A program made the translations under genes and the position numbers. Positions 6,865 to 28,659 of a DNA stretch of 64,000 nucleotides are shown here, one piece after another (positions within the stretch are counted from its first letter, which is position 1; every line of letters starts with the position of its first letter). This stretch comes from Calditrichaceae bacterium (GTDB lineage: Bacteria > Calditrichota > Calditrichia > Calditrichales > JBFXGD01). The stretch covers positions 98,913-162,912 of the forward strand of contig JBFXLE010000009.1 in assembly GCA_050173015.1 (NCBI GenBank), read 5' to 3'. The notes beneath the pieces were generated by a model, which had not been told where the DNA came from, ran no database searches, and worked only from the letters and a program-made list of their open reading frames with translations.

Positions 6865-7130
6865 AGACTCAGGGGTGGAAAGTATTCTGCCACAAGCATA
6901 GCAAATATTTTAAAAAAATCAGCTCAAAAAGCAGGAATAACAAAAACGATAACGCCGCCTACGCGGCGTTCTTGTTTTGCGACGCGGTTGCTTGCGCAGG
7001 GTAGGGATTTAAGGTATATTCAGGAGTAGTTAGGTCAAAATAGTCCCGGGAAGACTGAACTGCACCCGTTTCGAATAAGTCTATTGATTGAATAAGGAAT
7101 TCTGTTGATGATATTTTTGAAAAGGATTAG
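6865..7130 (+). pseudogene. 3' vestige of a tyrosine recombinase (integrase) gene, reading towards the cassette array
   Basis: The frame starting at 6865 reads ...GGKYSATSIANILKKSAQKAGITKTITPPTRRSCFATRLLAQGRDLRYIQE*LGQNSPGKTELH. After a frame shift it continues PVSNKSID*IRNSVDDIFEKD*. This parallels the box II C-terminus of Xer/integrase proteins (HTLRHSFATHLLE.G.DLRYIQELLGH...TTEIYTHVSNK...). It contains stops, has lost the His/Arg positions, and the catalytic Tyr codon is deleted. About three quarters of the gene is missing upstream. Confidence 0.7.
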
Positions 7131-7220
7131 TTAATTGTAAAAAAAATATATAAACAATGGTTCATACACCGCCAATTTGGGGGGATAAGAACAATGGGAT
7201 ATATACGAACGTTATGGGCA
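6951..7220 (+). repeat. Scaffold repeat copy 1: integrase vestige, hairpin, then GTT core (attI-like junction)
   Basis: About 270 bp that aligns with 11399-11669 and 20268-20540. It starts with the perfect hairpin AACGCCGC-ctac-GCGGCGTT followed by cttgtttt. It ends with the hairpin aatggttc..ccgccaatttgggggg..gaacaat and then GTTATGG at 7211. Confidence 0.85.
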
Positions 7221-7342
7221 AGGCAATGAAAGAAAACGCAATGGGAGTAATATTGTCAGGAAATAGAAAGTTGGAGACTAAAAATAGCTAATATAGATGA
7301 ATGTTTTGAGAAAATAAAAATAGATTCTAAAGAGAAAATATT

Positions 7343-7849
7343 ATGAGTATATACACAGATAAAACATATGTTGCTTTTGATGCTGATAATGATATCCACT
7401 ACTACAGATTGATGCAAGCTTGGAAAAAAAATGATAATTCTTCATTTAACTTTTATGATGCTCACGATTTGAATAATTTGATGTCTTGGTCTTCAGAAGA
7501 AACAATAAAAGCGAGACTTGCTGAAAGAATGAAAAACTCAAAAGTCTTTATTTTACTTGTAGGAAATAACACAAAATTTCTATACAAATTTGTTCGATGG
7601 GAAATTGATCAAGCTTTAAAAAGAGAAAAACCTATTATAGTTGTTAACTTAAATAAAAAGAGAAGCAGGGATACCGAACGATGTCCTGCTATTTTAAATA
7701 GTGAATTAGCGGTTCATATAAGTTTTAATCAAAAGATAATTGAATACGCAATAAATAATTGGCCTAGCTCTGAGGAGTATTACCGTAAGAACAATGAAAA
7801 AGGAGATTATTATTACAAAGATTCTGTTTATAAAGAATTAGGAATATGA
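7343..7849 (+). CDS. thsB: ThsB-like TIR domain protein (DUF1863/MTH538 TIR-like), type II Thoeris
   Basis: 168 aa. KTYVAFDADND...SKVFILLVGNNTKF..FVRWEIDQALKREKPIIVVNL matches the DUF1863 TIR-like pattern, including the conserved WEI glutamate. Its stop overlaps the next start (ATGA). Confidence 0.7.
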   Translation: MSIYTDKTYVAFDADNDIHYYRLMQAWKKNDNSSFNFYDAHDLNNLMSWSSEETIKARLAERMKNSKVFILLVGNNTKFLYKFVRWEIDQALKREKPIIVVNLNKKRSRDTERCPAILNSELAVHISFNQKIIEYAINNWPSSEEYYRKNNEKGDYYYKDSVYKELGI

Positions 7850-8751
7850 AAATGGGTATTTACAGATGGTTGTCGAAATATAAATCTATCCTTACAGATT
7901 TGATGTCTGGTATAGGCCTTTTTTGGCTATTTGTTGAAATAGCAAGTTATTCGACAAATGGACAAATTGACAAATACACGAAAAGCATAGCTTTTTTCTT
8001 AGTAGGGTTTGTATTAATCATTATTATAGTGCTAATAAAAAATAGGCCTAGAACATCTTTTTCCTATAAATTACGAGATAAAGATAATTTCATAGAAGTT
8101 AAAGTAGGTGATGCTTTTGATAATAATGGAGCTTTAATAATTCCATTCAATAATTATCTTGATGTATCTCTCGGTGGTAATGTAAAAAAGGCTAATAGTC
8201 TGCAAAACAAACTTATAAAACAATATTATTTTGATAAAGAAGAACATTTAGTTCAAGATATTTTAAAAAAAACAAATCTAACTGCACCATTTGATATTGG
8301 TACGACTGTAGAAATTGAACAAAAAGGTAAAAGTTTTTTTCTACTAGTTAATTCTCATAAAAAAGAAAATAACCGAGTTGTATCGACAGTTGATGACTTC
8401 TTATTGAGTTTATCGAAGGTTTGGGATTTCATTGCTTTGGAATCCGGAAGAAAAAGTATAGTAACAATTCCAATAATAAGTACAAATCACGGCAGAATAA
8501 CAGACTTAAACAGAATGAATGCGATAAAAGAAATTATTAATAGCTACGTTGAGGCTTCAAAGTTTCTAAATATTGCAGATAAATTGATAATCAGCATTTT
8601 TCCAGACGATATAAATAAAGGAAATATTAAACTTGATGAAGTAGATGAATATTTAAAGTTTCAGTGTAATCATTATAGAAAAGTTCATTTTTCACCTAAA
8701 CTAGAAGGTAAAGAAGTAAGTCCTTCAGTTACAAAGGGTATTAATAATTAA
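7846..8751 (+). CDS. thsA: ThsA-like effector: two N-terminal TM helices plus a Macro-like domain (type II Thoeris)
   Basis: 301 aa. Two hydrophobic helices (GIGLFWLFVEIASY and IAFFLVGFVLIIIIVLI) are followed by IEVKVGDAFDNNGALIIPFNN, which resembles the Macro-domain start (GDIT...AIVNAAN). It is translationally coupled to the TIR gene. Confidence 0.6.
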   Translation: MKMGIYRWLSKYKSILTDLMSGIGLFWLFVEIASYSTNGQIDKYTKSIAFFLVGFVLIIIIVLIKNRPRTSFSYKLRDKDNFIEVKVGDAFDNNGALIIPFNNYLDVSLGGNVKKANSLQNKLIKQYYFDKEEHLVQDILKKTNLTAPFDIGTTVEIEQKGKSFFLLVNSHKKENNRVVSTVDDFLLSLSKVWDFIALESGRKSIVTIPIISTNHGRITDLNRMNAIKEIINSYVEASKFLNIADKLIISIFPDDINKGNIKLDEVDEYLKFQCNHYRKVHFSPKLEGKEVSPSVTKGINN

Positions 8752-10345: not shown

Positions 10346-11230
10346 ATGATTTTAGACTATTTAAATAAAACATTTAATAACAGAGAAATCGTATTGATTT
10401 CCTATTTGACAATTTTCATTATATGGACACTTACACAGAAAAATATTAGACAGTCCATAGTGTCTGTGATTAAAGCATTTATGGCATGGAAGATACTTGT
10501 TTCAATATTTGTGTTGTTACTATATATTGCATTGATTGCTTTTGGATTATTTAAAATTGGACTTTGGGATAAATCCATGATTAAAGATACTGTTTATTGG
10601 ACTTTTGGGGTCGGATTCATTATTATGATGAATTTTGACAAAGCATTGAAGGAAGAACACTATTTTAAGAACCTTGTCAAAGAAAATTTTAAAGTCCTTA
10701 TAATCATTGAATTTATAGTTGGAATTTATGTTTTTGGTATCATCACTGAATTTATTTTAATGCCATTTGTGATTCTATTTTCAATGTTATTAGGATACAC
10801 TGAAGTTTATAAAGAGCATGGACAAGTTCGCAAATTTTTAAATGGAATCTTTGGCATCATAGGTACGATTTATTTAATTTATTCCGGTTATCATATTTAC
10901 TCTGATTTTACTGGATTTGCAACTCTGGGGAATCTTAAAACATTTTTATTCCCTTTAATAATGTTTGTTCTATTTTTACCATTTGCATATTCCTTTGCAC
11001 TATTGGCTCATTACGAGAGCTTATTCGTTCGATTAGGTTTTTTCCTTAAAGACAAAAAATTGAGAAGATTCGCTAAGTGGAGAATATTATTGTCAGTAAA
11101 TTTTAGCATTTTAAGATTAAAACGAATAACACCTGGAATGTTATTTAGTGACTGTTCTACTAGAGAAGATATAAAAAATGAGATAAAAAATAAAATAAAC
11201 CCAGCAGCTAACACACAATATAGCCAATAA
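10346..11230 (+). CDS. Polytopic membrane protein, unknown function (single-gene cassette)
   Basis: 294 aa with about 7-8 hydrophobic segments (for example IVLISYLTIFIIWTL, ILVSIFVLLLYIALIAFGLF, FILMPFVILFSMLLGY). Its last codons overlap the inverse core of attC-3. Confidence 0.55.
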   Translation: MILDYLNKTFNNREIVLISYLTIFIIWTLTQKNIRQSIVSVIKAFMAWKILVSIFVLLLYIALIAFGLFKIGLWDKSMIKDTVYWTFGVGFIIMMNFDKALKEEHYFKNLVKENFKVLIIIEFIVGIYVFGIITEFILMPFVILFSMLLGYTEVYKEHGQVRKFLNGIFGIIGTIYLIYSGYHIYSDFTGFATLGNLKTFLFPLIMFVLFLPFAYSFALLAHYESLFVRLGFFLKDKKLRRFAKWRILLSVNFSILRLKRITPGMLFSDCSTREDIKNEIKNKINPAANTQYSQ

Positions 11231-11340
11231 GGGTTTCAGTGGTATGCAAAGGGTTGTAGTGTAGCCCGCTCCAACTTTTCGTGTAACTTGATAGGAAATC
11301 ACCCGCAATCCCTTACTGGCCATATTGTCAAGCGTTAGCT
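11207..11340 (+). repeat. attC-like site 3 (subtype Y)
   Basis: GCTAACacacaatatagccaataaggg pairs with cccttactggccatattgtcaagcGTTAGCt. It shares the gcaatcccttac right arm and the gtaacttgata centre with the sites at 20082 and 28024. Confidence 0.7.
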
Positions 11341-11669
11341 CCAAGGCTAAAAAATAGAAACAAAAAGAATAAAATATTTGCCAAAAGGATGAAAATAGAA
11401 CGCCGCCTATGCGGCGTTATTGTTTTGCGACGCGGTTGCTTGCGCAGGGTACGGATTTAAGATATATTCAGGAGTAGTTATGTCATATTAGTCCCGGGAC
11501 GACTGAACTGCACACGTCTCAAATAAGTCAATTGATTGAATAAGGAATTCTGTTGATGATATTTTTGAAAGGGATTAGTTAATCGTAAAAAAAATATATA
11601 AACAATTGTTCATATACCGCTGATTTGGGTGGATAAGAACAATAACATATACACGCACGTTAGGTTGCA
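11341..11669 (+). repeat. Scaffold repeat copy 2: leader, integrase vestige, hairpin, GTT core
   Basis: Starts immediately after the attC-3 core. It translates as TPPMRRYCFATRLLAQGTDLRYIQE*. It carries the hairpin AACGCCGC-ctat-GCGGCGTT followed by attgtttt, and ends GTTAGGT at 11659, 25 bp before the next ATG. Confidence 0.85.
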
Positions 11670-11683
11670 TTAAAAAAGAAACC

Positions 11684-12268
11684 ATGAAACTATATCACAG
11701 ATACAACATAAAGAGAAAACAAGAACATTTATTTTTGGAGTTTATCTTGAATAATATTCCAGGAATAAATTATTTAAAAGAGAATTATCGTCTTACAGAA
11801 AATGAATATGATTCATCAATTGAGATAAAACCCATAATTGATTCATTAAAAAATGACACTTGGTTACCAAAAAAGCGTAAACAAAATTGCATTGACATTT
11901 TACAGGACATTAAACTTAATCATGACAAGGTCGTAGTATTTGAATCGGTTAATAAAATATCATTTGATTTCACTATTAAAATAGATAGTGACTTGTTTTT
12001 CTTTGAATTACACGAAGACCAACACAAGAAGTTAAAAGTAAATAGACAGTCAAAAATATTTGATATCCAAGGAAATGAAATTTTTGTTCCTCGTTATTTA
12101 CAAAGATTATTAAAGGATATTTGGCGCTGGGAGAATCTTGACAACTACAAGATAATTTGGGCTGACTGGTTTATTTCATCATCAAATAAACTTTCTAACT
12201 TGTTGGAAAAAGGAAAAATCGAATACGGAATAGATAATACATTTCAATTTAAAAACTTAGGAATATGA
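11684..12268 (+). CDS. Hypothetical protein, possibly a DUF559/Vsr-like (PD-(D/E)xK-fold) endonuclease
   Basis: 194 aa. SFDFTIKIDSDLFFFELHEDQHKK followed by RYLQRLLKDIWRWENL loosely resembles the DF...(hydrophobic)E.DG..H...D..R..L pattern of DUF559. This is weak, by-eye evidence only. Confidence 0.3.
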   Translation: MKLYHRYNIKRKQEHLFLEFILNNIPGINYLKENYRLTENEYDSSIEIKPIIDSLKNDTWLPKKRKQNCIDILQDIKLNHDKVVVFESVNKISFDFTIKIDSDLFFFELHEDQHKKLKVNRQSKIFDIQGNEIFVPRYLQRLLKDIWRWENLDNYKIIWADWFISSSNKLSNLLEKGKIEYGIDNTFQFKNLGI

Positions 12269-12792: not shown

Positions 12793-12932
12793 ATGACAAA
12801 TATCAATAGAAACAAATATCAAACAACCTTTTCGTTTTGACTCAGATTTCCAAAGATAAAAAGAAAGAAATTCTTGAATATATTGCAGAAAAATTCAATC
12901 AGAGTATAAAAATCGAATTTGTGAAGAAATAA
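12793..12932 (+). pseudogene. Possible frameshifted small ORF at the end of the cassette
   Basis: ATG at 12793 gives MTNINRNKYQTTFSF then a stop. The -1 frame continues LTQISKDKKKEILEYIAEKFNQSIKIEFVKK*. That stop (12930-12932) lies inside the inverse core of attC-4, mirroring the overlap of the 3' end of ORF 10346-11230 with the inverse core of attC-3. Confidence 0.25.
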
Positions 12933-13074
12933 CGCAACCTAGCACGCAATAAAAAACATAGGGCAGAAAGTGCAAAAATTGAACGACATAACATTTAATA
13001 AACGACTTGGTAACTTGACAGGGAAGTGCTTCGAAATGCCAAACGTTTCATATACGTAACCGATAGCGTTCATT
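12928..13074 (+). repeat. attC-like site 4 (subtype X)
   Basis: AATAACgcaacctagcacgcaataaaaaacatagggca pairs imperfectly with tgccaaacgtttcatatacgtaaccgatagcGTTcATT. It shares aataacgc and gaaatgccaaacg with the site at 21575. The core is weaker than in the other sites. Confidence 0.5.
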
Positions 13075-13149
13075 GTAAGGAGACAAAACAACCGTCAGAA
13101 TAATTATGGTATTTTTGCTGCATGAAGAAAAAAGAAAATATGGAAATAG

Positions 13150-13227
13150 CCACCGCACAAATGGCATATTTGGTTTTTGCCGACGCACAGCCAAACGCTG
13201 AAAAAACCAAAAGAGCCATTTCTTGCC
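13150..13227 (+). repeat. IR-B1: structured inverted repeat of about 75 bp forming the 5' leader of hsdR
   Basis: The arms aaatggcatatttggttttt and aaaaaccaaaagagccattt are 17/20 complementary around a spacer of about 23 nt (gccgacgcacagccaaacgctg). It is homologous to 21722-21795 through to the start codon. Confidence 0.75.
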
Positions 13228-13251
13228 ATCTCACGACTGAAAGATAATGAT

Positions 13252-16098
13252 ATGACAACATATAAAAATCAAAATCCTGAACAAATAGCCAGAGACAAAA
13301 TTGACAAAATGTTAATTGAAGCTGGTTGGATTGTTCAATCTAAAAATGAAGTTGACTTGGGTGCAGGCAGAGGTGTTGCGTTGAGAGAATACCAAACGGA
13401 AACAAAATTTGCGGATTATGTGCTGTTTGTTGACAAAAACCCTGTTGGAATTATTGAGGCAAAAAAAGAAGACGAAGGACATAAACTAACCGTAGCGGAA
13501 GACCAAGCCTCTGAATATGCCAAAGCAAAACTAAAATATTTGGATAACGACCCATTGCCTTTTGTTTTTGAGAGTACCGGAACAATAACCCGTTTTAGAG
13601 ATACACGAGACCCAAAACCAAGAGGGCGACATATTTTTTGGTTTTACCGTCCCGAAACATTGGCGGAATGGCTACAAAAAGATAAAAGTTTAAGAGGTAG
13701 ATTATTAGATATTCCGCAATTAAATGAGACTGGGCTTCGCCCTGCTCAAATTAAGGCGATTAATAACCTTGAACAATCTTTTAAAAAGAACAAGCCAAAA
13801 GCTTTAATACAAATGGCTACCGGAGCAGGTAAAACTTTTACTGCCTGTACTTTTGTGTATCGCTTATTGGAACACGCCAAAGCCAAACGGATTTTATTTT
13901 TGGTTGACACCAAAAACTTAGGAGAACAAGCAGAACAGGAGTTTATGGCTTTTCAGCCCAACGACAGCAATCGCAAATTCACAGAATTGTATAATGTACA
14001 GCGTCTTACTTCAAGCTACATAGCAAGCGATAGTCAGGTTTGTATCTCTACCATTCAACGGATGTATGCCATTTTAAAAGGTGAAGAACTAGACGAAGGA
14101 GCCGAAGATACAAACCCGAACGAATCGACCTGGATGGAACAACAGCGAAATAAAAAACAGGCAATGCCTGTGGAATATTCTGCCAAAGTACCCATTGAAC
14201 AATTCGATTTTATTGTAATTGATGAATGCCACCGCTCTATTTACAATCTTTGGAAACAAGTGTTGGATTATTTCGATGCTTTCCTTATCGGCTTAACTGC
14301 CACACCCGATAAGCGAACTTTTGGCTTTTTTGAGGAAAATGTAGTGAGCGAATATACCTATGAAGAATCTGTGTTGGATGGTGTAAATGTTCCTTACGAT
14401 GTGTACAATATTGAAACTGAAATTTCGCAAAAAGGCAGTGTGATAAAAGCAGGTTGGTTTGTGGACAGACGAGATAAGCTCACCCGAAAAACGCGTTGGC
14501 AACAAGAAGATGAAGACACCGAATATTTGAAAAACGATTTGGATAAAAAGGTCGTTAATCCAAGCCAGATACGGAATATTATTCGCCAATACAAAAAAGC
14601 ATTGGAAACCGAAATTTTCCCGAACAGAAAAGACGAAAATGGAGAATACGAAGTTCCTAAAACACTGGTTTTTGCAAAAACTGACAGCCACGCGGATGAT
14701 ATAATCAAAATCATTCGTAAAGAATTTGACGAAGGCGATGATTTCTGCAAAAAACTGACTTATAAAATAAAAGAAGACCCAAAATCGGTGTTAAACCGTT
14801 TTCGGAATTCATATCATCCCCGCATTGCGGTTACGGTAGATATGATTGCAACGGGAACCGATGTAAAACCTTTGGAAGTGTTGTTGTTTATGCGTGATGT
14901 TAAAAGCACCAACTACTTTGAACAAATGAAGGGTAGAGGAACACGCACCATTAACAAAGATGCTTTTCAGGCAAACAACACCAATGTAAAAGGGGCTTGC
15001 AAAACCCATTTTATTATTGTGGATGCAGTTGGCGTAACAAAGTCGAAGAAAACCGACAGCCGGCCTTTGGAACGCAAACCAACTGTAGCCTTAAAAGATT
15101 TATTGGGAGCGGTAACAATGGGAGTTACCGAAGAAGATTTGTTTCTTTCGCTTGCAAATCGTTTGATACGATTAGAAAAAGAAATTACCGACAAGGAAAA
15201 AGATAAATTACTGGAACATTCCAAAGGCAAAAATCTGAAACAAATCAGCAAAGAATTATTATCGGCTTTTGATAAAGATGAAATTGAAAACAGAGCACAG
15301 GAAAAAATTGAAAAATTCTGTAAAGACGCCCTACAGGGCGTCTCTTCTGCTGCCGATTTATCTCCGGCACAAATAGAATCTTTCCGACAGGACGCACAGA
15401 AAGAATTGATTAATACCGCCGCTTCTACTTTTAACGGAAAGCTGAACGATTATATTGAAAAAGTGCGTATGGAACACGAGCAAATTATCGACAGCCACAA
15501 TATCGACACCGTAACAAAATCGGAATGGGACACCGCTTCGGTGGATAAAGCCAAAGAAACTGTAAAAGATTTTAACGAATACCTCGAAGCCAATCAGGAC
15601 GAGATAAAAGCATTGACCATTTTTTACAAACAACCCTACAACCGCCGAAACATTACCTTTAAAATGATTAAAGATGTGTTTGATAAACTGAAATTGGATA
15701 AACCCACCCTTGCCCCCGATTATGTTTGGGCGGCATACAGCCAATTGGAAGAGGTAAAAAGCAAACAACCGATTGACGAACTCACCGCGTTAATTTCGTT
15801 AATTCGCAGGGCTTGCGGAATTGACAGCGAGTTGAAAGCTTTTGATTCCACCATTGACGAAAATTTCAAAAACTGGATTTTCAAACAAAACGCAGGCAAG
15901 CACAACCGCTTTACAACCGAACAAATGGACTGGCTGCGAGAACTGAAAAATCACGTAGTAAATTCGTATCACATAGAAATTGAAGACCTCGATTATACAC
16001 CCTTTGATGAAAAAGGAGGACGTGGCAAAATGTACCAACTCTTTGGTGCCGAAATGAACGATATTATTAATGAACTTAACGAGGTATTAGCAGCATAA
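13252..16098 (+). CDS. hsdR: Type I restriction enzyme R subunit (HsdR), with an EcoEI-type C-terminal domain
   Basis: The N-terminus KIDKMLIEAGWIV...ADYVLFVD..PVGIIEAKKE is the HsdR_N nuclease fold. It also has helicase motif I (MATGAGKTFT), DECH (IVIDECHRS) and TATP, plus a C-terminal tail like EcoEI_R_C. I prefer the ATG at 13252 over the track start at 13177, which lies inside IR-B1. Confidence 0.85.
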   Translation: MTTYKNQNPEQIARDKIDKMLIEAGWIVQSKNEVDLGAGRGVALREYQTETKFADYVLFVDKNPVGIIEAKKEDEGHKLTVAEDQASEYAKAKLKYLDNDPLPFVFESTGTITRFRDTRDPKPRGRHIFWFYRPETLAEWLQKDKSLRGRLLDIPQLNETGLRPAQIKAINNLEQSFKKNKPKALIQMATGAGKTFTACTFVYRLLEHAKAKRILFLVDTKNLGEQAEQEFMAFQPNDSNRKFTELYNVQRLTSSYIASDSQVCISTIQRMYAILKGEELDEGAEDTNPNESTWMEQQRNKKQAMPVEYSAKVPIEQFDFIVIDECHRSIYNLWKQVLDYFDAFLIGLTATPDKRTFGFFEENVVSEYTYEESVLDGVNVPYDVYNIETEISQKGSVIKAGWFVDRRDKLTRKTRWQQEDEDTEYLKNDLDKKVVNPSQIRNIIRQYKKALETEIFPNRKDENGEYEVPKTLVFAKTDSHADDIIKIIRKEFDEGDDFCKKLTYKIKEDPKSVLNRFRNSYHPRIAVTVDMIATGTDVKPLEVLLFMRDVKSTNYFEQMKGRGTRTINKDAFQANNTNVKGACKTHFIIVDAVGVTKSKKTDSRPLERKPTVALKDLLGAVTMGVTEEDLFLSLANRLIRLEKEITDKEKDKLLEHSKGKNLKQISKELLSAFDKDEIENRAQEKIEKFCKDALQGVSSAADLSPAQIESFRQDAQKELINTAASTFNGKLNDYIEKVRMEHEQIIDSHNIDTVTKSEWDTASVDKAKETVKDFNEYLEANQDEIKALTIFYKQPYNRRNITFKMIKDVFDKLKLDKPTLAPDYVWAAYSQLEEVKSKQPIDELTALISLIRRACGIDSELKAFDSTIDENFKNWIFKQNAGKHNRFTTEQMDWLRELKNHVVNSYHIEIEDLDYTPFDEKGGRGKMYQLFGAEMNDIINELNEVLAA

Positions 16099-17636
16099 TG
16101 AGAGAAGATTGGATTGACGTTGAATTAAAAGATGTTTGCCTAAGTTCAAAGGGAAAGAAACCAAGTGTTTTAGAAAAAAATAATTCTGAAACTGCTAATG
16201 TGCCATATATAAATATCAAAGCTTTTGAGAAAGGTATAATAGAAGAATACACTGATGGTGAAAAATGCAATTTATGTGAAGATGGTGACTTGTTAATGGT
16301 TTGGGATGGTGCAAGGGCTGGGCTTACAGGTAAAGCTAAAAAAGGTGCTGTTGGTTCAACACTAATGAGAATTGAAGAAGTAAAAGGTATTGAAAAGGAA
16401 TATTTATATTATTTTCTTTTATCACTTTTTACAAAGATTAATACAAATCCAAGAGGTGTTGGTATTCCACATGTTGAACCACGAATACTATGGTTGTCAA
16501 AAGTATTAATTGTTAGCAGTCCCATCCAACGAGCAATAGTATCCAAAATCGAAGCCCTGTTTTCCGATTTGGACAACGGCATCGCCAATTTAAAAAAAGC
16601 ACAGGAGCAATTAAAAATATACCGTCAAGCGGTTTTGAAAAAGGCCTTTGAGGGCGAACTCACAAAAGAATGGCGTGAAAAGATTGTACAGACGCCCAAT
16701 TTGGGCGTATCAACGCCCCTGCCAACAGCCGAAGAACTGCTAAAACAAATAAAAGAAGAACGCCAAAACCACTACAACCAACAAATTGAAGACTGGAAAA
16801 AAGCGGTTAAGGAATGGGAGAAAAATGGGAAAGTTGGGAAGAAGCCAAGTAAGCCTAAGCAGCAAAAAGAATTGCCACCTTTAAATGAGGAAGAATTGAA
16901 TGAGCTGCCGAAATTGCCAAAGTCAATGGTATGGACACAACTTGGAAATGTGGTTTGGTCTGTAAAAGATGGACCTCATTTTAGCCCTAAATATTCAAAA
17001 ACTGGTATACCCTTTATCTCAGGTGGGAATATTAGACCAGAAAAAATTGACTTTGAAAAAGTAAAATATATTTCAGAAGAGCTTCATAAGGAACTAAGTC
17101 GAAGATGTAAACCACAATTAGATGACATTCTATACACCAAAGGCGGAACAACTGGAATTGCAAAAGTTAATACATATAAATTTGATTTTAATGTTTGGGT
17201 GCATGTAGCAGTATTAAGACCAATCCAAATGATTTTACCATTATATTTACAACATGTTTTAAATTCTTCTCATTGTTATAAACAATCGCAAGAATATACA
17301 CATGGGGTTGGTAATCAAGATTTAGGTTTAACAAGAATGATTTTAATCACACTGCCTATTTGTTGTAAAGAAGAACAAACCCAAATCGTCCAAGAAATAG
17401 AAAGCCGTTTATCGGTTTGCGACAAAGTAGAGCAAAGCATAACCGAAAGCCTTGAAAAAGCCGAAGCCCTTCGCCAAAGCATTCTTAAAAAAGCATTTGA
17501 GGGCAAATTATTAAGCGAAGCTGAAATAGAACAATGCAAAAAGGCAGCCGATTACGAACCTGCGGCAAAATTGTTGGAACGAATAAAACAGGAAAAAATA
17601 AATAAGGATAATAATAAAAAAACAAAATCAAAATAA
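16098..17636 (+). CDS. hsdS: Type I restriction-modification specificity subunit (HsdS)
   Basis: 512 aa. Two target-recognition halves are each followed by the conserved helix LKKAFEG(E/K)L (at about aa 180 and about aa 470). TAATG overlap with hsdR. The central linker carries a REP-like insertion. Confidence 0.85.
   Translation: MREDWIDVELKDVCLSSKGKKPSVLEKNNSETANVPYINIKAFEKGIIEEYTDGEKCNLCEDGDLLMVWDGARAGLTGKAKKGAVGSTLMRIEEVKGIEKEYLYYFLLSLFTKINTNPRGVGIPHVEPRILWLSKVLIVSSPIQRAIVSKIEALFSDLDNGIANLKKAQEQLKIYRQAVLKKAFEGELTKEWREKIVQTPNLGVSTPLPTAEELLKQIKEERQNHYNQQIEDWKKAVKEWEKNGKVGKKPSKPKQQKELPPLNEEELNELPKLPKSMVWTQLGNVVWSVKDGPHFSPKYSKTGIPFISGGNIRPEKIDFEKVKYISEELHKELSRRCKPQLDDILYTKGGTTGIAKVNTYKFDFNVWVHVAVLRPIQMILPLYLQHVLNSSHCYKQSQEYTHGVGNQDLGLTRMILITLPICCKEEQTQIVQEIESRLSVCDKVEQSITESLEKAEALRQSILKKAFEGKLLSEAEIEQCKKAADYEPAAKLLERIKQEKINKDNNKKTKSK
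16691..16708. repeat. REP-like palindrome a (partial), in frame inside hsdS
   Basis: GACGCCCAATTTGGGCGT, translated as QTPNLGVS in the HsdS central linker. Confidence 0.8.
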
Positions 17637-17687
17637 TTGTGAAACGCGTTGGACGTATTTGTCGCATTTGACGCGTTGGACGCATTG

Positions 17688-17716
17688 GTAGAGACGCCCA
17701 ATTTGGGCGTCTCTAC
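17688..17716. repeat. REP-like palindrome b (29 nt)
   Basis: GTAGAGACGCCCAATTTGGGCGTCTCTAC. It lies between hsdS and the RAYT gene, flanked by cgttggacg motifs and gatccc/gacgac short repeats. Confidence 0.85.
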
Positions 17717-17788
17717 GACGACGATCCCTACGATCCCGATCCCGACGACGACAATATCGTTCACGTTCACAATAACGAAAACAAAAAT

Positions 17789-18400
17789 ATGCCCGATAAA
17801 TTTCAAAACAAATACCGCATACCATCGGCACGATTGCAAACATGGGATTATGGAAGCAATGGAACCTATTTTATAACCATTTGCACCCAAAACCGTGAAC
17901 ATTATTTTGGTGAAATTACAGACGGTAATATGATATTATCCGAAATAGGAATTTTGGCGAACAAATATTGGAATGAAATACCAGAACATTTTCCATTTGT
18001 CAATTTGGATGAATTTGTGGTAATGCCCAACCACGTGCATGGGATTATTATCATTGATAAACCCGATGATGGACGGGATGATGGGCGGGACGTTGGACGG
18101 GACGTTGGACGGGACGTAGAGACGCCCAAATTGGGCGTCTCTACCAATACCAATACCAATACCAATACCAATCATCAAACCGCCACGGCATCCGAAAAAT
18201 GGAAACCGGCATCATTGGGGGTAATTATCAACCAATATAAACGAATGGCAACCATTAAATCGCGTAAAATCCACGCTGATTTTGGTTGGCAATCCCGTTT
18301 TTACGACCAGATCATACGAAACAACGAATCGTATGAAAAAATCAGAAATTATATTGTCAACAACCCATTGAAATGGGAAGAAGATAAATTTTACAATTAA
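17789..18400 (+). CDS. IS200/IS605-family Y1 (HUH) transposase of the REP-associated (RAYT) type
   Basis: 203 aa. NKYRIPSARLQTWDYGSNGTYFITICTQNREHYFG, the HUH motif VVMPNHVHGIIII, and the C-terminal catalytic-Tyr region GWQSRFYDQIIRN. It is interrupted in frame by a low-complexity/REP insert of about 35 aa. Confidence 0.8.
   Translation: MPDKFQNKYRIPSARLQTWDYGSNGTYFITICTQNREHYFGEITDGNMILSEIGILANKYWNEIPEHFPFVNLDEFVVMPNHVHGIIIIDKPDDGRDDGRDVGRDVGRDVETPKLGVSTNTNTNTNTNHQTATASEKWKPASLGVIINQYKRMATIKSRKIHADFGWQSRFYDQIIRNNESYEKIRNYIVNNPLKWEEDKFYN
18071..18172 (+). repeat. Composite in-frame insert in the RAYT gene: 12-mer x4, REP hairpin, hexamer x4.7
   Basis: GGACGGGATGAT/GGGCGGGACGTT/GGACGGGACGTT/GGACGGGACGTA at 18071-18118, the REP palindrome at 18116-18144, and (CAATAC)n at 18145-18172. 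Together these translate as GRDDGRDVGRDVGRDVETPKLGVSTNTNTNTNTN. Confidence 0.9.
18116..18144. repeat. REP-like palindrome c (29 nt), in frame inside the RAYT ORF
   Basis: GTAGAGACGCCCAAATTGGGCGTCTCTAC. Identical to palindrome b except for the flipped centre (aaatt versus aattt). Confidence 0.85.
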
Positions 18401-18415
18401 ATTGAAAGAAATAAT

Positions 18416-19936
18416 ATGTCAGAAAGTGCAATAGTATCAAAAGTGTGGAATTTCGCCAATGTTCTTAGAGACGATGGAGTGGGTTATGGTGATTATTTAG
18501 AGCAAATCACCTATTTGCTTTTCCTAAAAATGGCAGACGAACTTAACAAACCGCCCTACAATAAAGGTTTAAAATTTCCGAAACTCAAAAATGCTGAGGG
18601 TGTTGAATTGCCCGATGCCGAAACCTGCGACTGGCAAACGCTGTCGCAAAAACGTGGTTTGGAATTGGAAAATTTTTACAACCAAATGCTACGAAGTTTG
18701 GGAAGCGAAAAAGGAACGTTGGGGCAAATTTTCGTAAAAAGTCAAAACAAAATACAAGACCCATCAAAACTCTTAAAAATCATTGATATGATTGATAAAG
18801 AGCAATGGAGCTTAATGGGAACCGATGTAAAAGGGAAAATTTACGAAGGTCTTTTAGAGAAAAATGCCGAAGACACCAAAAGCGGTGCAGGGCAATATTT
18901 TACGCCTCGTTCGCTCATCAAAACAATGGTGGCTTGTGTTCGTCCCAAACCCATGAAAACCATTATAGACCCTGCTTGTGGCACTGGCGGTTTCTTTTTG
19001 GCAGCTTACGATTATATCAAAAGTCAGAATTTAGACCAGGAAGAAAAGGAGTTTTTGAAAAACAAAACTTTCTACGGAAACGAAATTGTAGCCAATACAC
19101 GCAGAATGTGTTTGATGAACATGTTTTTGCACAACATTGGCGAAATTGATGGCGAAACACTCATTTCTTCAGCTGATGCTTTGGTTTCGGACAATGGCAT
19201 ACGCTACGATTATGTGCTGGCAAATCCGCCTTTTGGTAAAAAAAGCAGTATGACCATTACCAACGAAGAGGGCAAACTGGAAAAGCAGGATTATACTATC
19301 AATCGTCAGGATTTTGTGGCTACCACAGCCAACAAGCAACTAAACTTTTTGCAACACATAAAAACGCTTTTAAAACTCACAGGCGAAGCAGCCGTTGTAC
19401 TTCCCGATAATGTTTTGTTTGAGGGCGGAGCAGGCGAAACGGTTCGGAAAGAATTGATGAAAACAACCGAATTGCATACAATTTTAAGACTTCCAACAGG
19501 TATATTTTACGCACAAGGTGTAAAAGCAAATGTTTTGTTTTTCGACAACAAACCAGCTTCAAAAGAGGCTTGGACAAAAGATGTTTGGATTTATGATTAT
19601 CGAAGTAACATAAGCCACACATTAAAGAAAAACCCAATGCGATTTGAGCATCTACAGGAATTCGTAAAACTCTACAATCCCGAAAACCGAAATAAAAGAA
19701 CAGAAACGTGGAGCGAAACAAATCCCGAAGGCAGATGGAGAAAGTATAGTTATGCTGAAATCATTGAACGAGATAAAACCAACTTGGATATATTTTGGAT
19801 TAAAGACAAAAGCTTAACCGACTTAGATAATTTACCCGACCCCGATATTTTGGCAAACGAAATCATTGAAAACATTGAAGCCGGATTAAATAGTTTTAAA
19901 GAAATAATGGAAACAATAAACGGAGATGAAAGCTAA
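18416..19936 (+). CDS. hsdM: Type I restriction-modification N6-adenine DNA methyltransferase (HsdM)
   Basis: 506 aa with an HsdM_N-like N-terminus, the SAM motif IIDPACGTGGFF and the catalytic motif LANPPFG. Confidence 0.9.
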   Translation: MSESAIVSKVWNFANVLRDDGVGYGDYLEQITYLLFLKMADELNKPPYNKGLKFPKLKNAEGVELPDAETCDWQTLSQKRGLELENFYNQMLRSLGSEKGTLGQIFVKSQNKIQDPSKLLKIIDMIDKEQWSLMGTDVKGKIYEGLLEKNAEDTKSGAGQYFTPRSLIKTMVACVRPKPMKTIIDPACGTGGFFLAAYDYIKSQNLDQEEKEFLKNKTFYGNEIVANTRRMCLMNMFLHNIGEIDGETLISSADALVSDNGIRYDYVLANPPFGKKSSMTITNEEGKLEKQDYTINRQDFVATTANKQLNFLQHIKTLLKLTGEAAVVLPDNVLFEGGAGETVRKELMKTTELHTILRLPTGIFYAQGVKANVLFFDNKPASKEAWTKDVWIYDYRSNISHTLKKNPMRFEHLQEFVKLYNPENRNKRTETWSETNPEGRWRKYSYAEIIERDKTNLDIFWIKDKSLTDLDNLPDPDILANEIIENIEAGLNSFKEIMETINGDES

Positions 19937-19939
19937 GCC

Positions 19940-20020
19940 CAGCCCAAAAACCATACACATTTGCAATTCGCGCGAGCCAACGCTTGACCAAAAATTGCAA
20001 AAGAGTATGTCTTGCCAACG
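19940..20020 (+). repeat. IR-B2: structured inverted repeat immediately downstream of hsdM
   Basis: The arms catacacatttgcaatt and aattgcaaaagagtatg flank the spacer cgcgcgagccaacgcttgaccaa. The element is preceded by agcccagcccaaaaac and followed by cttgcc. Confidence 0.75.
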
Positions 20021-20081
20021 CACGGACAGAGAATGCAGCAAAAATGAAAGATAAATTGGCTGGAAAAATAAACAACGAAAC

Positions 20082-20209
20082 GCTAACACGCGGTATAAAA
20101 CATTGGGGTTTAAGTATTTATTCGAGCGTTCTACCCCGCATCAAGTTCGGTGTAACTCGACAGGATAGTAGCCCGCAATCCCTTACGAGTCATACACTCA
20201 AAGTTAGTT
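20082..20209 (+). repeat. attC-like site 5 (subtype Y)
   Basis: GCTAACacgcggtataaaacattgggg pairs with cccttacgagtcatacactcaaaGTTAGTt. The centre is homologous to attC-3 and attC-7. Confidence 0.65.
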
Positions 20210-20540
20210 CCAAGCCTAAAAAATAGAAACAACAAGAATAAAATATTTGCCAAAAGGATGAAAATAGAACGCCGCCTATGCGGCGTTATTGTTTTGCAAC
20301 GCGGTTGCTTGCACAGGATAGGGATTTAAGGTATATTCAGGAGTAGTTAGGTCATAATCGTTCCGGGACTACTGAAATTTGCGCACATCTCAAAAAAGTC
20401 TATTGATAAAAACAGTAATCCTACGGATGATATCTTTGAAAGGGATTAGATAATTGTAAAAGAAATATATAAACAATTGTTCATACACCGCCAATTTGGG
20501 CGGATAAGAACAATAGAATATATACGAACGTTGTGTGGCA
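20210..20540 (+). repeat. Scaffold repeat copy 3: leader, integrase vestige, hairpin, GTT core
   Basis: Same order as copy 2. It has the hairpin AACGCCGC-ctat-GCGGCGTT, the integrase-like frame FATRLLAQDRDLRYIQE*, the terminal hairpin ATTGTTC-ataca-CCGCC-aatttg-GGCGG-ataa-GAACAAT, and then GTTGTGT at 20530. Confidence 0.85.
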
Positions 20541-20572
20541 TTAGAAGTAACTTACATAAAAAAGGGTGACTT

Positions 20573-21160: not shown

Positions 21161-21569
21161 TTTACCTAATTTATTAACTGCATCAAGTATTCTATTGGGA
21201 ATTATTACTGCATTATATGGTTTATTTTTTCCTGCGATTAATTCAATTTTAGTAATAAAATCTAAGCCCCATAAGGTTGATAATAAGAAGGCCTACAGTG
21301 AAAGCAAGGATATTATAAAAGCAAAATATATTCCATTATTAATTGGTTCGTTAGTAATTACATTGATAAACATACCAGAGCTGTTTTCTCAATTAAGAAA
21401 TAGTTTTGTTGCAATAAAAACTAGTGGAATAGAGAACACAACATATGATACGTTAACAGCATCATTTATTGTCGTTTGCCTTTTTATGATTTTCATTACG
21501 ATAATGATGATAGCAACTGGTTTTAAGTTAAGAAAGAAAATAAAAGAACTTAATCCAAATGAACAATAA
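21150..21569 (+). CDS. Small 3-TM membrane protein, unknown function
   Basis: 139 aa. It overlaps the upstream ORF by 11 nt. Hydrophobic helices: SSILLGIITALYGLFFPAI, IPLLIGSLVITLINIP and FIVVCLFMIFITIMMIATGF. Confidence 0.5.
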   Translation: MKTDLPNLLTASSILLGIITALYGLFFPAINSILVIKSKPHKVDNKKAYSESKDIIKAKYIPLLIGSLVITLINIPELFSQLRNSFVAIKTSGIENTTYDTLTASFIVVCLFMIFITIMMIATGFKLRKKIKELNPNEQ

Positions 21570-21574
21570 CGCCA

Positions 21575-21704
21575 CACAACAAAAAATATAGTGCATTTGG
21601 CAGATGGTGCTAAAAATGAAAATGATTGCAATAAATGAACATAGTAGTAAATTGAAAGCTTGGAGCGTTGAAATGCCAAACGCACCATATTCAAACCGTT
21701 GTAT
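21575..21704 (+). repeat. attC-like site 6 (subtype X)
   Basis: CACAACaaaaaatatagtgcatttggca pairs with tgccaaacgcaccatattcaaaccGTTGTAt. It begins 6 nt after the stop of the 139-aa ORF. Confidence 0.6.
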
Positions 21705-21721
21705 GCCATGCTGGAAACGAG

Positions 21722-21795
21722 CTAACCGCACAAATAGCACATTTGGTTATTGCTGACACAAAAGCAAAGGCTGAAAAACTAAAAGAGCTATTTTA
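21722..21795 (+). repeat. IR-B3: structured inverted repeat forming the 5' leader of the STAND gene
   Basis: The arms aaatagcacatttggttatt and aaaaactaaaagagctattt form the repeat. It aligns with IR-B1, including the preceding accgcaca and the following ...acgcaca.agact.aaa...ATG. Confidence 0.7.
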
Positions 21796-21825
21796 TTGTC
21801 AAACGCACATAGACTAAAACTAAAA

Positions 21826-27897: not shown

Positions 27898-27904
27898 CCA
27901 TGAA

Positions 27905-27990
27905 TCCAAACGCTCGCATCCATACACATTGGCAAATCGCACAGGACAGCCACACCAGCCAAAATTTGCCAAAGAGTATGGCTGCACCAA
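27905..27990 (+). repeat. IR-B4: structured inverted repeat immediately downstream of the STAND gene
   Basis: The arms catacacattggcaaat and atttgccaaagagtatg form the repeat. Relative to IR-B2, both arms changed together (tttgcaatt/aattgcaaa became ttggcaaat/atttgccaa). Confidence 0.75.
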
Positions 27991-28023
27991 CGCCGCCAGA
28001 AAAGAAAATGAAAAAGCACGGGC

Positions 28024-28145
28024 ATACAACAATGTGTATAATTCATAAGGGTTTCAGCGGATTGCAAGCCGTATCACCCGCATCAAATTCGGGTGGTAAC
28101 TTGATAAGTAAAAAGTTCGCAATCCCTTACGAATCATAGTTAGCT
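28024..28145 (+). repeat. attC-like site 7 (subtype Y), last in the array
   Basis: catACAACaatgtgtataattcataaggg pairs with cccttacgaatcataGTTAGCt. The centre (gggtttcagcgg...ggtaacttgataag) is homologous to attC-3. Confidence 0.6.
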
Positions 28146-28285
28146 CCAAGGCTAAAAAATAGAAACAAAAAGAATAAAATGTTTGCCAAAAGAATAGAAA
28201 TAAAAGCCACCGCACAGTAAGCACATTTGCAATTCGCGCGAGCCGGCGCGAAAACCAAAAATTGCAAAAGATTGCAATCTTGCCG
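28146..28285 (+). repeat. Terminal scaffold leader plus IR-B5 (no cargo)
   Basis: ccaaggctaaaaaatagaaacaaaaagaataaaatgtttgccaaaag matches the leader of scaffold copies 2 and 3. It is followed not by the integrase vestige but by gccaccgcaca..cacatttgcaattcgcgcgagccggcgcgaaaaccaaaaattgcaaaag..cttgcc. That sequence combines the left edge of IR-B1/B3 with the body of IR-B2. Confidence 0.7.
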
Positions 28286-28659
28286 GCGCGTGACTGAATA
28301 CGAATAGAAAACTATATAATTTGGAATTGAACTAATGAAATTATCACCCGCGCGATTAGAGAACTTGATCCCGGAATTTATCGGATATCTTATCCGTTAA
28401 GTATAAATAATATCGAAATTATAACTGTACGACATAACACTTTTATCAGAAACAGATCCTAAAAAATAAATCAAAGGCGATACAACAACACAATCAAGGT
28501 AACAAAAAAGCGGTTACTGTAGATTGTCTCCCTATTATTACACACCGTGGTAGATCATCAGAAACCCGACAAGCGCCGGACGCCGGTTTTTTGCGCCAAA
28601 ACGTGGAGGTGATACCTTATGCAAAAAACGATTTTAAAAAATAGTACAGGATTTAAACT

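Follow-up and report, generated by a model that had tools for sequence, protein, structure and literature searches.

Paired DNA hairpins just within the two ends of large cassettes of defence genes, in an apparent integron-like capture system of Bacteroidota

The window, by which we mean the whole 64 kb stretch of DNA that was analysed, contains an array of gene cassettes spanning about 6.9 to 30.5 kb. With its filters off, a covariance model detected exactly five copies of a hairpin-forming element, here termed B, in the 64 kb window; all five were on the plus strand and within the array, with scores of 37.8 to 87.4 bits (B1–B5 had belonged to the training alignment of this model), and the best minus-strand score was 13.9 bits. 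The features of the array are as follows.

6886–7227, + strand: R1, pseudogene fragment corresponding to the 3′ end of an Xer-like tyrosine recombinase (…KKAGITKTITPPTRRSCFATRLLAQGRDLRYIQE*LG…), at the left array edge
11202–11336, + strand: attC-like hairpin ending a Thoeris-containing cassette, from R″ CAGCAGCTAAC to GTT at 11334
11334–11675 and 20203–20546: further R copies, each at the head of a cassette without a B element
12935–13064, + strand: decayed attC-like site upstream of B1, with a diverged 5′ half and GTT mutated to GAT
13062–20205, + strand: type I restriction-modification (RM) cassette, carrying hsdR, hsdS and hsdM between B1 and B2
13147–13236, + strand: B1, B5′-type hairpin module at the 5′ end of the type I RM cassette; 87.4 bits
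19936–20025, + strand: B2, B3′-type hairpin module starting at the hsdM stop codon (19936); 46.2 bits
20077–20205, + strand: attC-like hairpin of the RM cassette, from R″ GAAACGCTAAC to GTT at 20203
21575–21700, + strand: attC-like hairpin upstream of B3, CACAAC-aaaa-AATATAGTGCATTTGGCA … TGCCAAACGCACCATATT-caaacc-GTT
21698–28141, + strand: STAND/NACHT cassette, with the 5′ end GTTGTATGCC (21698)
21720–21810, + strand: B3, B5′-type hairpin module; 78.7 bits
27908–27997, + strand: B4, B3′-type hairpin module; 37.8 bits
28020–28141, + strand: attC-like hairpin of the STAND cassette, with R″ GGGCATACAAC, L″ GTGTATAATTCATAAGGG, L′ CCCTTACGAATCATA and GTT at 28139
28204–28293, + strand: B5, solo or hybrid copy at the 5′ end of the last cassette (VWA operon); 49.6 bits

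The RM cassette is ordered, from its 5′ end, as a GAT/GTT box, a promoter-like TATTTTTG (13110–13117), B1, hsdR, hsdS, hsdM, B2 and an attC-like site. B1 itself consists of box 1 (CCACCGCACA), a 7-bp outer stem, an internal motif (ATA/AGA, a variant of the ACA/AGA type), a 10-bp inner stem, a GC-rich loop and a TCTTGCC trailer. A preliminary description of this DNA had given the coordinates and arms of five elements, two of them directly upstream of hsdR and the STAND gene and two directly after the hsdM and STAND stop codons, so that they bracketed two large cargoes. All of this was confirmed: B1 and B3 each end 16 nt before the ATG (at 13252 for hsdR and 21826 for the STAND gene), B2 starts at the hsdM stop codon, and B4 starts 11 nt downstream of the STAND stop at 27897. 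The cassette-start GTT (21698) lies 22 nt upstream of B3, and the R″ box of the STAND cassette itself lies 23 nt past the end of B4. B5 combines a B5′-type 5′ flank (CCACCGCACA) with a B3′-type inner stem (TTTGCAATT) and outer arms (GTAAGC and TTGCAA) that do not pair. Two small ORFs that follow B2 (20035–20226) and B4 (28009–28139) overlap the attC-like hairpins, gave no Pfam match and were judged spurious.

A stem-agnostic pattern search extended the B family to at least 120 loci or genomes, nearly all from Bacteroidota. The copies fall into two subtypes: B5′, located a short way upstream of the first cargo gene, and B3′, which begins at the last stop codon. Since the search pattern fixed CCGCACA, GCAYATTTG and AAAAGA, the conservation of these strings in B5′ copies partly reflects selection; ACA…TTTG and CAAA…AGA were also kept in the B3′ copies, which were found by the covariance model alone. 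In the alignment of 119 copies, 96.6% of the cells of the 18-pair helix were paired, 12 of the 18 pairs had changed on both sides, and the observed covariation values were reached by none of 500 shuffles. Shifting the structure by 1–3 columns lowered pairing to 36–58%. The earlier proposals that the two arms change together with pairing kept, and that selection acts on a folded nucleic acid, were thus borne out across the family, the exception being the unpaired outer arms of B5. Among the 31 B3′-type copies, at least 10 different inner-stem sequences were present, every one of them complementary. Inside the helix, A·A / C-G / A·A (5′ ACA facing 3′ AGA) forms a conserved motif, which was kept in 27 of these 31 copies and whose central pair covaries (ATA/AAA in loci L032 and L057). 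The stem is AT-rich, the loop of about 36 nt is conserved, and three GCCRACNC boxes are located in the loop and flanks.

The outer stem is most commonly AAACAGC/GCTGTTT, with AAATGGC, ATTTAGC, AAGTGGC and CCATAC… among its variants; such differences between copies are unlike conserved transposase-binding repeats. An operator bound by a dimeric protein in duplex DNA was ruled out as a complete account of B, since such a protein would read two duplex half-sites without any need for complementarity between the variable outer stems, which is nonetheless maintained. The CTnDOT core GTANNTTTGC, which we take to resemble GCACATTTGS in B, was also set aside because its geometry misfits (arms more than 50 bp apart). 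Rfam gave no match over B, either in the window at the gathering threshold or in ten source loci (E ≤ 1, applied to five loci, or gathering); the matches obtained were to tRNA and group II introns only. BLAST against plasmid and phage collections gave no match to B5′, and we found neither the B element nor its cassette system described in the literature.

B5′–B3′ pairs enclose same-strand cargo, from about 2.8 kb up to more than 8 kb in size, that is rich in RM and other defence genes; cassette cargo includes type I, II and IIG RM, DISARM-like, STAND and Thoeris systems. The conserved B modules are common to unrelated cargo, in line with the initial view of them as homologous modules for unrelated genes. 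All 37 second B copies were on the same strand as the first copy. B5′-type copies (B1 and B3) come 16–90 nt after the cassette-start GTT, ahead of the cargo, and in at least 12 cassettes B3′ directly adjoins the final stop codon, often starting within 0–3 nt of it. B was seen on large cassettes only (from 2.8 kb to over 8 kb); the 0.55–0.78 kb cassettes of the same array had none. Together, these results show that the B copies are real, conserved DNA hairpins located just inside both ends of large defence-gene cassettes, and provide good support for regarding B5′ and B3′ as a conserved pair of hairpin-forming modules. No other signature of these cassettes is as conserved or as easily searched.

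Outside the brackets, at a distance of 16–90 nt, we detected a separate class of AAC…GTT hairpins of about 120–210 nt resembling attC sites. Stems scoring at least 22 were present in 37 of 70 regions versus 12 of 350 shuffles, with AAC within 9 nt of the stem in 32 of the 37. More than half of the stem mismatches (59/106) were top-strand A·C, that is, G·T on the bottom strand, and group II introns were inserted in these sites, likewise on the bottom strand. The spacing from B3′ to the attC-like hairpin was about 20–60 nt in short-spacer cassettes and approximately 147 nt in long-arm cassettes (L072). In the latter class, A-tracts after B3′ are the reverse complement of T-tracts before B5′ in the same cassette, and the boxes face each other, consistent with a composite fold.

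The first bases of a cassette appear to complete the site at its own 3′ end. In 12 of the 21 cassettes compared, 7–10 nt of the 5′ GTT extension were complementary to that cassette's own R″ box; among non-self pairs, only 3% reached 9 nt. In the window, the 5′ end of the RM cassette, G(A)TAGCGTT, which reads GTT in the relative L078, is complementary to the R″ box ACGCTAAC at 20080–20087, and GTTGTATGCC of the STAND cassette is perfectly complementary over 10 nt to its own 3′-end GGCATACAAC (28021–28030). The 3′ half of the decayed site upstream of B1, from 13010, is 92% identical to L078. The same rule of end complementarity applied to six consecutive cassettes of a Cellulophaga locus (L134), in which B is present on a 3.7 kb RM-like cassette alone. 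Cassettes without B in L134 and L121 look complete, suggesting that B is not required for recombination as such. Homology between related cassettes ends at a GTT 16–90 nt upstream of B5′. Comparison of these sequences gives good support to the AAC/GTT boxes of the attC-like hairpins outside B, and not B, as the putative crossover sites. The early suggestion of a link to integron-type recombination was right for the surrounding locus; the possibility it raised of B as the recombination site was not supported.

We also observed that CAT, CAC or CAA is conserved after GTTRNNNNN and that reading continues through attC (for example, in a 106-aa ORF at 21389–21709). A role of this triplet as a bottom-strand start codon was rejected, as peptide similarity simply tracks DNA conservation.

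The recombinase of the array is likely a co-oriented Xer-like tyrosine recombinase. In L047, L117/L121, L066 and L134, an upstream gene of the same orientation encodes it, and the window retains this gene as pseudogene fragments only; R1 includes, in addition, about 170 nt downstream of the recombinase fragment. The protein scored 179–194 bits against TIGR02249, below the integron-integrase cut-off of 265, and aligned to this model in two stretches that skipped positions ~179–254, so that the IntI-specific insertion is missing. Its best PDB matches were XerA and XerC-like proteins; IntI4 (2a3v) was likewise matched in two pieces. It has an extra N-terminal region of 100–220 aa, and metagenome contigs break 244–319 nt past its gene. 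A conserved, divergent zinc-finger-like protein of ~137 aa was also noted. No Y1/HUH transposase was linked to B at the 120 loci, where tblastn detected Xer-like recombinases only. We also considered B as a homologue of the recombinase-coding fragment in the R modules and rejected it; MAFFT aligned B5 to R with weak likeness.

Several features bear on whether B acts as DNA or RNA. G·T and A·C mismatches numbered 18 and 30 in B5′ stems and 1 and 5 in B3′ stems, and the 2,632 stem cells counted held no G·U excess, although these counts are not phylogenetically independent and the argument built on them is limited accordingly. B also lacks the strand bias of the attC-like stems (A·C far above G·T), and its A·A mismatches are conserved. 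Among 120 copies, a predicted −7 promoter box, called by motif match only, lay downstream of B5′ in 45, against 11 with an upstream box (9 of them with no downstream one), indicating that B5′ is not consistently inside a transcript. For B1, the sole predicted box is upstream, with the ATG just 16 nt off. Both cargo genes of L007 lie on the other strand, yet B keeps the polarity of the cassette, antisense to the cargo. Neither the structured RNA leader or trailer suggested in the preliminary description nor a generic structured cis-regulatory RNA is supported by these three observations (G·U counts, promoter position and polarity). An intrinsic (Rho-independent) terminator was rejected in view of the loop length, the AT-rich stem and the T-run lacking in several subgroups.

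A transcriptional function of a different kind, in which B delimits transcription units through RNA as a terminator-like insulator or an RNA-stability stem-loop, appears rather unlikely to us. B5′ would then block read-through into self-promoted, potentially toxic cargo, and B3′ would end or stabilise the cargo transcript ahead of the attC-like site. The start of B3′ 0–3 nt from the last stop in many cassettes fits this scheme, as does the 13-fold enrichment of a TAnnTTTG box 10–30 nt downstream of B5′, whose trailer TTTTTTGCC could provide a −33 TTTG. The restriction of B to large operon cassettes, which are probably self-promoted, is also consistent with it, and window cassettes without B carry another hairpin and a T-run (AACGCCGCCTATGCGGCGTT) at the equivalent place. 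The missing G·U excess counts against it, however, as does the L007 polarity, which tracks the cassette and not the cargo. A simple terminator scan flagged no B, although the loop of about 36 nt is beyond its reach, and whole subgroups have no T-run (…GCTAAATCACCC). In the long-linker class, which includes B1, the promoter box is upstream only and the ATG follows B by 16–30 nt, so a terminator at B would silence the cargo. Moreover, termination needs no conserved loop, three GCCRACNC boxes or A·A mismatches.

We also considered B5′ and B3′ as the directly repeated ends of a nested, non-autonomous mobile or exchange unit that is independent of the attC-like sites and moves by site-specific B×B recombination or by a hairpin-recognising single-stranded DNA route of the IS200/IS605 or rolling-circle kind. 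The same B5′ and cargo do follow GTT linkers that differ entirely (L083 versus L119, 89% identical; also L026, L055 and L066), with the 5′ edge of B5′ marking where homology starts; the window diverges from L078, to which it is 92% identical, within the B2 loop; and B5 looks like a hybrid, with its B5′-type flank, B3′-type inner stem and mismatched outer arms. A conserved loop with covarying stems also resembles the architecture of HUH-enzyme nick sites. Yet no HUH/Y1 transposase or other dedicated enzyme was consistently near B, a faint Y1_Tnp ORF (17789–18400) has its own, different palindromes, and neither an empty site nor a precise presence/absence polymorphism was found. BLAST end-points at B edges are weak evidence because B is so conserved, and the homology boundary is GTT, not B, in L016 versus L107, L032 versus L057 and L012 versus L073. 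We consider such a unit improbable. The earlier proposal that B is a short class of attC site is largely refuted and has very little probability left. The copies are imperfect hairpins of attC-like size in a cassette array, with conserved unpaired bases, and the commonest outer stem happens to hold AAC…GTT; but the other outer-stem variants have no AAC or GTT, B is present twice per cassette and internal to it, the bottom-strand G·T signature of true attC-like stems is missing, and both the complementary cassette ends and the homology boundaries map to the separate, longer AAC…GTT hairpin outside B.

The lack of conserved AAC/GTT and of G·U excess, the unfixed promoter position and the cassette-bound polarity lead us to read B tentatively, from sequence comparison and with not quite an even chance of being right, as hairpins with an accessory function at the DNA level, carried by the large cassettes of an integron-like array. 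Once a cassette is circularised or single-stranded, B3′ and B5′ would stand on either side of the attC-like site and could fold as hairpins or cruciforms, exposing the A·A / C-G / A·A motif and the GCCRACNC boxes of the loop and flanks. The folded modules might then serve as accessory, arm-like architectural sites at which no cleavage occurs, and may recruit the recombinase or a partner protein, shield attC folding from the cargo, or aid synapsis of two attC sites several kb apart. Against an accessory role, B3′ is pinned to the stop codon and B5′ is often close to a promoter, which would fit transcription-unit delimiting as well. A broader proposition, possible but on the unlikely side in our estimate, is that Bacteroidota have an unrecognised, phylum-wide integron-like capture system in which B is a folded, non-cleaved adaptation for multi-kb defence operons. 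An Xer-like recombinase without the IntI domain would act on attC-like sites of about 120–210 nt, and B would recruit it and let two distant attC sites synapse. B might even derive from a circularly permuted attC, its 5′ half resembling L′-spacer-R′ and its 3′ half R″-spacer-L″, with GTT/AAC changed to TTT/AAA.

Integrons are regarded as nearly absent from Bacteroidetes and as carriers of small single-gene cassettes; this locus and its relatives suggest otherwise. They look like parts of an as yet unrecognised gene-capture system of integron-like type in Bacteroidota. A major bacterial phylum appears to own a cassette-capture system that moves whole defence systems as cassettes. The B hairpins offer a practical probe for mobile defence operons in Bacteroidota genomes and metagenomes, as well as a concrete, mutable element for studying how a tyrosine recombinase handles multi-kb cassettes.

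Surveys with IntegronFinder have reported Bacteroidetes proper to be essentially devoid of integrons, and IntegronFinder 2.0 listed for Bacteroidetes only In0 elements and one Salinibacter integron. The locus nevertheless resembles integron cassette arrays and their attC sites, such as the Vibrio VCRs, in its co-oriented cassettes parted by long imperfect AAC…GTT hairpins, its first cassette bases that complete pairing with the cassette's own 3′ box, its better-pairing bottom strand, the bottom-strand group II introns in its sites, the recombinase gene at one end and the defence-rich cargo. Co-oriented cassettes with a folded end site completed by their first bases were found at 13062–20205 and 21698–28141. 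It differs in a recombinase that lacks the IntI-specific insertion and scores below integron-integrase cut-offs, in R-box pairing of up to 9–10 bp and in cassettes of more than 8 kb. B differs from integron attC in having no conserved AAC/GTT, in occurring twice per cassette and internally, and in its sequence conservation across the phylum.

Like REP/BIME elements, B is a short, imperfect, multicopy and strand-oriented palindrome found directly after stop codons. In contrast to them, however, its window copies are confined to the array and form 5′/3′ pairs around cargo, with a conserved 36-nt loop, flanking boxes and no associated RAYT transposase. Folded single-stranded hairpin sites are also known from the subterminal hairpins of IS200/IS605 and from the phage CTX attP used by XerCD, and B shares with these the similar, directly oriented hairpins at both ends and the conserved stem irregularities. 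Unlike IS200/IS605, it has no linked Y1 transposase and no conserved target tetranucleotide that we could find, and attC-like sites lie further out around its cargo. Accessory sequences that bind recombinases are known beside several core sites: DR1/DR2 of attI1, the arm sites of lambda-type systems and cer/psi of Xer recombination. B is comparable to these as conserved DNA that adjoins the crossover but is putatively not cleaved; in the circular form it would lie to either side of the core. It also carries repeated GCCRACNC boxes and is associated with an Xer-like recombinase. In the known accessory sites, which are recognised as duplex, stems do not covary, whereas the stems of B covary around conserved mismatches, which argues that B must fold.

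All five B elements of the window lie where the preliminary description had placed them, with the arms that it had quoted, and the gene context of B1–B4 (hsdR, hsdM and the STAND gene) was as it had reported. A covariance model run without filters over the whole 64 kb, whose training alignment included B1–B5 themselves, returned exactly five copies, all on the plus strand; the top score on the minus strand of the window was just 13.9 bits.

13147-13236, plus strand: B1 (87.4 bits), with the hsdR ATG 16 nt past its end
19936-20025, plus strand: B2 (46.2 bits), beginning at the hsdM stop
21720-21810, plus strand: B3 (78.7 bits), with the STAND/NACHT ATG 16 nt past its end
27908-27997, plus strand: B4 (37.8 bits), beginning 11 nt past the STAND stop
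28204-28293, plus strand: B5 (49.6 bits)

The B fold is a hairpin in two parts, in which a small motif separates the outer from the inner stem and a GC-rich loop of about 36 nt closes the end. The earlier claim that arm pairing is kept holds for the family and fails for the outer arms of B5, which are not paired. The loop box (28242-28250) and the trailer box (28282-28290) of B5 were altered alike, both from GCCAACGC to GCCGGCGCG, so that two direct repeats have changed together; B5 is a single case, and strict co-variation of these boxes was not seen across the B family.

Using a search pattern in which the unpaired parts were fixed and the stems left free (CCGCACA-N4-GCAYATTTG-N28-44-AAAAGA; one genome per species), we found at least 120 matching loci, against a rough chance expectation of about 1. 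Nearly all of the matches listed came from Bacteroidota (Flavobacteriales, Cytophagales, Chitinophagales, Saprospiraceae and Bacteroidales), with a few MAGs labelled otherwise, and contig ends lay near many of them. The two arms change together, as had been proposed: in an alignment of 119 copies, 96.6% of the cells of an 18-pair helix were paired, two-sided changes occurred at 12 of the 18 pairs, none of 500 shuffles equalled the observed values, and shifting the structures by 1–3 columns reduced pairing to 36–58%. The outer-stem variants (AAACAGC/GCTGTTT, AAATGGC/GCCATTT, ATTTAGC/GCTAAAT, AAGTGGC/GCCACTT and others) were complementary throughout. Between the outer and inner stems lies a conserved A·A / C-G / A·A motif, the central pair of which also covaries (ATA/AAA in the related loci L032 and L057), and GCCRACNC-like boxes are conserved at three places, the 5′ flank, the loop and the 3′ flank. 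No Rfam family and no plasmid or phage record matched B, and our literature searches found no description of such an element.

The bracketing of large cargo by B, first described for the window, was confirmed and recurs in related loci as paired same-strand copies: a model search found 37 second copies, all 37 on the strand of the first and most of them about 3–7 kb away. The B5′ type (high model scores, like B1 and B3) lies shortly 5′ of the first ORF, with a median of 71 nt from the end of the pattern match to the ATG, and the B3′ type (low model scores, like B2 and B4; consensus AGCCAACGCTAAAAGCCATAC-ACA-TTTGCAATT…) starts at the last stop codon or within about 3 nt of it. B5′ comprises two lineages, alpha and beta, with a short GTT linker in 0 of 31 and 49 of 74 copies, respectively. 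Defence functions abound in the cargo 3′ of B5′, among them restriction-modification of types I, II and IIG, DNA methylases, DISARM-like and Druantia-like proteins, NurA/HerA and reverse transcriptases; mercury-resistance genes occur too.

An integron-type setting had been suspected, and a cassette array with attC-like sites does surround B. A long imperfect hairpin was found 3′ of B3′ and 5′ of B5′, with the form …YAAC-(1-4 nt)-L''(18-22 nt)…~90-100 nt…L'-(4-6 nt)-GTTR…. Its stem score was at least 22 in 37 of 70 regions versus 12 of 350 shuffles, and in 32 of the 37 high-scoring regions no more than 9 nt separated AAC from the stem. Since 59 of 106 stem mismatches were top-strand A·C, that is, bottom-strand G·T, the bottom strand folds better. 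In 12 of 21 cassettes, the first 7–10 nt (GTT plus extension) were perfectly complementary to the cassette's own 3′ AAC box several kb away; a mere 3% of non-self end combinations reached 9 nt. We take this own-end complementarity as the decisive test; the two large cassettes of the window have these end pairs:

13062 and 20080-20087: RM cassette (hsdR, hsdS, hsdM), G(A)TAGCGTT and ACGCTAAC
21698 and 28021-28030: STAND cassette, GTTGTATGCC and GGCATACAAC

The GTT that starts the RM cassette is intact in L078, a relative 92% identical, and the homology of related cassettes with differing neighbours begins at GTT (L016 vs L107, L032 vs L057, L012 vs L073). Three loci carry group II introns on the bottom strand, counter to the orientation of the cassettes, within or adjacent to the AAC (R'') box of an attC-like site:

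L073, 5063-5140, minus strand: group II intron
L055, 5821-6043, plus strand: group II intron
L072, 1-131, minus strand: group II intron

Another, in L057, is inserted between CACAA and C. Group IIC introns that target attC sites offer a parallel. A CA(T/C/A/G) triplet is conserved 9–11 nt past the cassette-start GTT (GTTRNNNNN-CAT/CAC/CAA; 21707-21709 in the window, same position in most loci); read on the bottom strand it gives ATG, GTG, TTG or CTG and opens small ORFs that cross the attC-like site (for example 21389-21709, minus strand, 106 aa), and it is probably merely conserved DNA.

How B is placed among cassettes was seen most clearly in Cellulophaga sp. Hel_I_12 (chromosome; L134), whose recombinase gene is followed by six consecutive cassettes that all conform to the own-end rule. 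Its five small cassettes (551–776 nt, two with toxin-antitoxin-like gene pairs) all lack B, and its sole 3.7 kb RM-like cassette carries a B5′ 16 nt past GTT and a B3′ that runs from the last stop codon to 24 nt short of the AAC box. Because small cassettes there lack B and the bracketed cargo of all loci measures from about 2.8 kb to over 8 kb, B is a module that is optional and belongs to large cassettes. Its place is within the cassette, where it flanks the attC-like site on both sides in the circular form. Cassettes of the long-arm type have A-tracts 3′ of B3′ and, as their reverse complement, T-tracts 5′ of their own B5′, and the boxes face each other, a complementarity suggesting that the whole B3′–attC–B5′ region folds as one composite structure. 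L134 also contains three copies of a unit of about 470 nt that has no ORF (11392-11860, 12836-13300 and 15872-16340), starts GTTGTATTTAATAAGATCAGCC and ends with a small AAC…GTT hairpin; the first copy is situated right at the predicted attI.

Upstream of the arrays, and co-oriented with them, L047, L117/L121, L066 and L134 carry a tyrosine recombinase gene. In L121, the GTT of the first cassette is about 225 nt past the recombinase stop, with the matching box AAGCACAAC at the cassette end. Among metagenome contigs with close relatives of the recombinase (L122–L130), 9 of 10 stop 244–319 nt past the gene, coinciding with the predicted attI/first-cassette boundary, as a hypervariable array would cause. 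The array-linked recombinase is Xer-like. Its family has at least 7,445 members, named mostly XerD or tyrosine recombinase; the top NCBIfam match is 'tyrosine recombinase/integron integrase' (XerA-type; 203–218 bits against a cut-off of 220); and the integron-integrase model and the IntI4 structure match it in two pieces only, skipping the IntI-specific insertion. Its extra N-terminal region (100–220 aa) had no Pfam match. A conserved gene for a protein of about 137 aa is divergent from the recombinase gene (L134 9509-9916, minus; L135 9506-9919, minus; L137 9506-9919, minus; L117 6580-7002, plus), the L117 copy having a zinc-finger-like N-terminus (C-x2-C…C-x3-C) with only a faint Pfam match; it is a candidate partner or regulator. 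Since a CTnDOT-type integrase (Arm-DNA-bind_5 + SAM_5) lies a few kb 5′ of the recombinase in several loci (L134 2933-4267, L135 6443-7696, L117 7797-7997), the whole platform may sit in or beside an integrative element.

The window array starts at 6886 with a pseudogene fragment of a Xer-like recombinase, the R module (~340 bp):

6886-7227: R module
11334-11675: R module
20203-20546: R module
28139-28205: partial R module

The module consists of the decayed 3′ end of the recombinase gene and about 170 nt downstream, in which a promoter-like box, TAttTTTG, is found. The cassettes headed by the three copies lack B5′, and those headed by the two further copies after 6886 are without B; copies 2 and 3 are joined to a 66-nt leader (GTTAGYTCCAAGSCTAAAAAATAGAAAC…) that is also found 5′ of B5. 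The cargo of the array begins with a Thoeris pair (ThsB TIR and ThsA Macro-type; 7343-8751); three ORFs without a Pfam match come next, and an attC-like site (11202-11336) closes the block. The type I RM operon contains three copies of GTAGAGACGCCCAAnTTGGGCGTCTCTAC, a perfect palindrome of 29 nt (16686-16714, 17688-17716 and 18116-18144), which flank or overlap a 203-aa ORF (17789-18400) with a faint IS200-like Y1 transposase match (E=0.005) and a 12-nt tandem repeat (18053-18112); between hsdS and hsdM, palindromes and ORF may represent an insertion of the REP/RAYT-like sort.

That B acts as DNA, and not as the structured RNA leader or trailer proposed initially, is indicated by four lines of evidence. 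A G·U excess is absent from the stems, with G·T 18 vs A·C 30 in 2,136 cells of B5′ and 1 vs 5 in 496 cells of B3′, the copies not being phylogenetically independent. By motif match only, 45 of 120 copies have a perfect Bacteroidota −7 box (TAnnTTTG) in the stretch from B5′ to the ORF, and the box is 13-fold enriched at 10–30 nt; in the long-linker class, which includes B1, the sole −7 box is upstream of B and the ATG follows B by 16–30 nt. In one locus (L007), a single case, the two cargo genes, one with a clear T9SS sorting domain, are encoded on the other strand, and B still has the cassette polarity. A simple terminator scan of the window flagged none of the five copies.

The idea that B is itself a short attC class is essentially excluded. 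We infer instead that B is hairpin- or cruciform-forming accessory DNA that would itself stay uncleaved, would show its conserved mismatches and boxes to the recombinase (through the extra N-terminal region) or to a partner protein, and would aid the folding or synapsis of large cassettes. The main rival is that B copies, lying by the first ORF and the last stop codon, delimit transcription units; because the position of B5′ relative to predicted promoters is not fixed, B5′ cannot serve generally as a leader or as a terminator. A smaller rival, in which cargo modules would be exchanged at B copies, draws on identical B5′ and cargo behind differing linkers (L083 vs L119; L026, L055, L066), on the divergence between the window and L078, which falls within the B2 loop, and on the hybrid appearance of B5.

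Integron surveys report almost no integrons in Bacteroidetes. The locus falls outside the standard integron definition, which calls for an IntI with its extra domain, and its attC-like sites share a better-folding bottom strand with integron attC sites. We class the locus as a novel integron variant and B as an accessory element, likewise new, that belongs to it and has a putative function.
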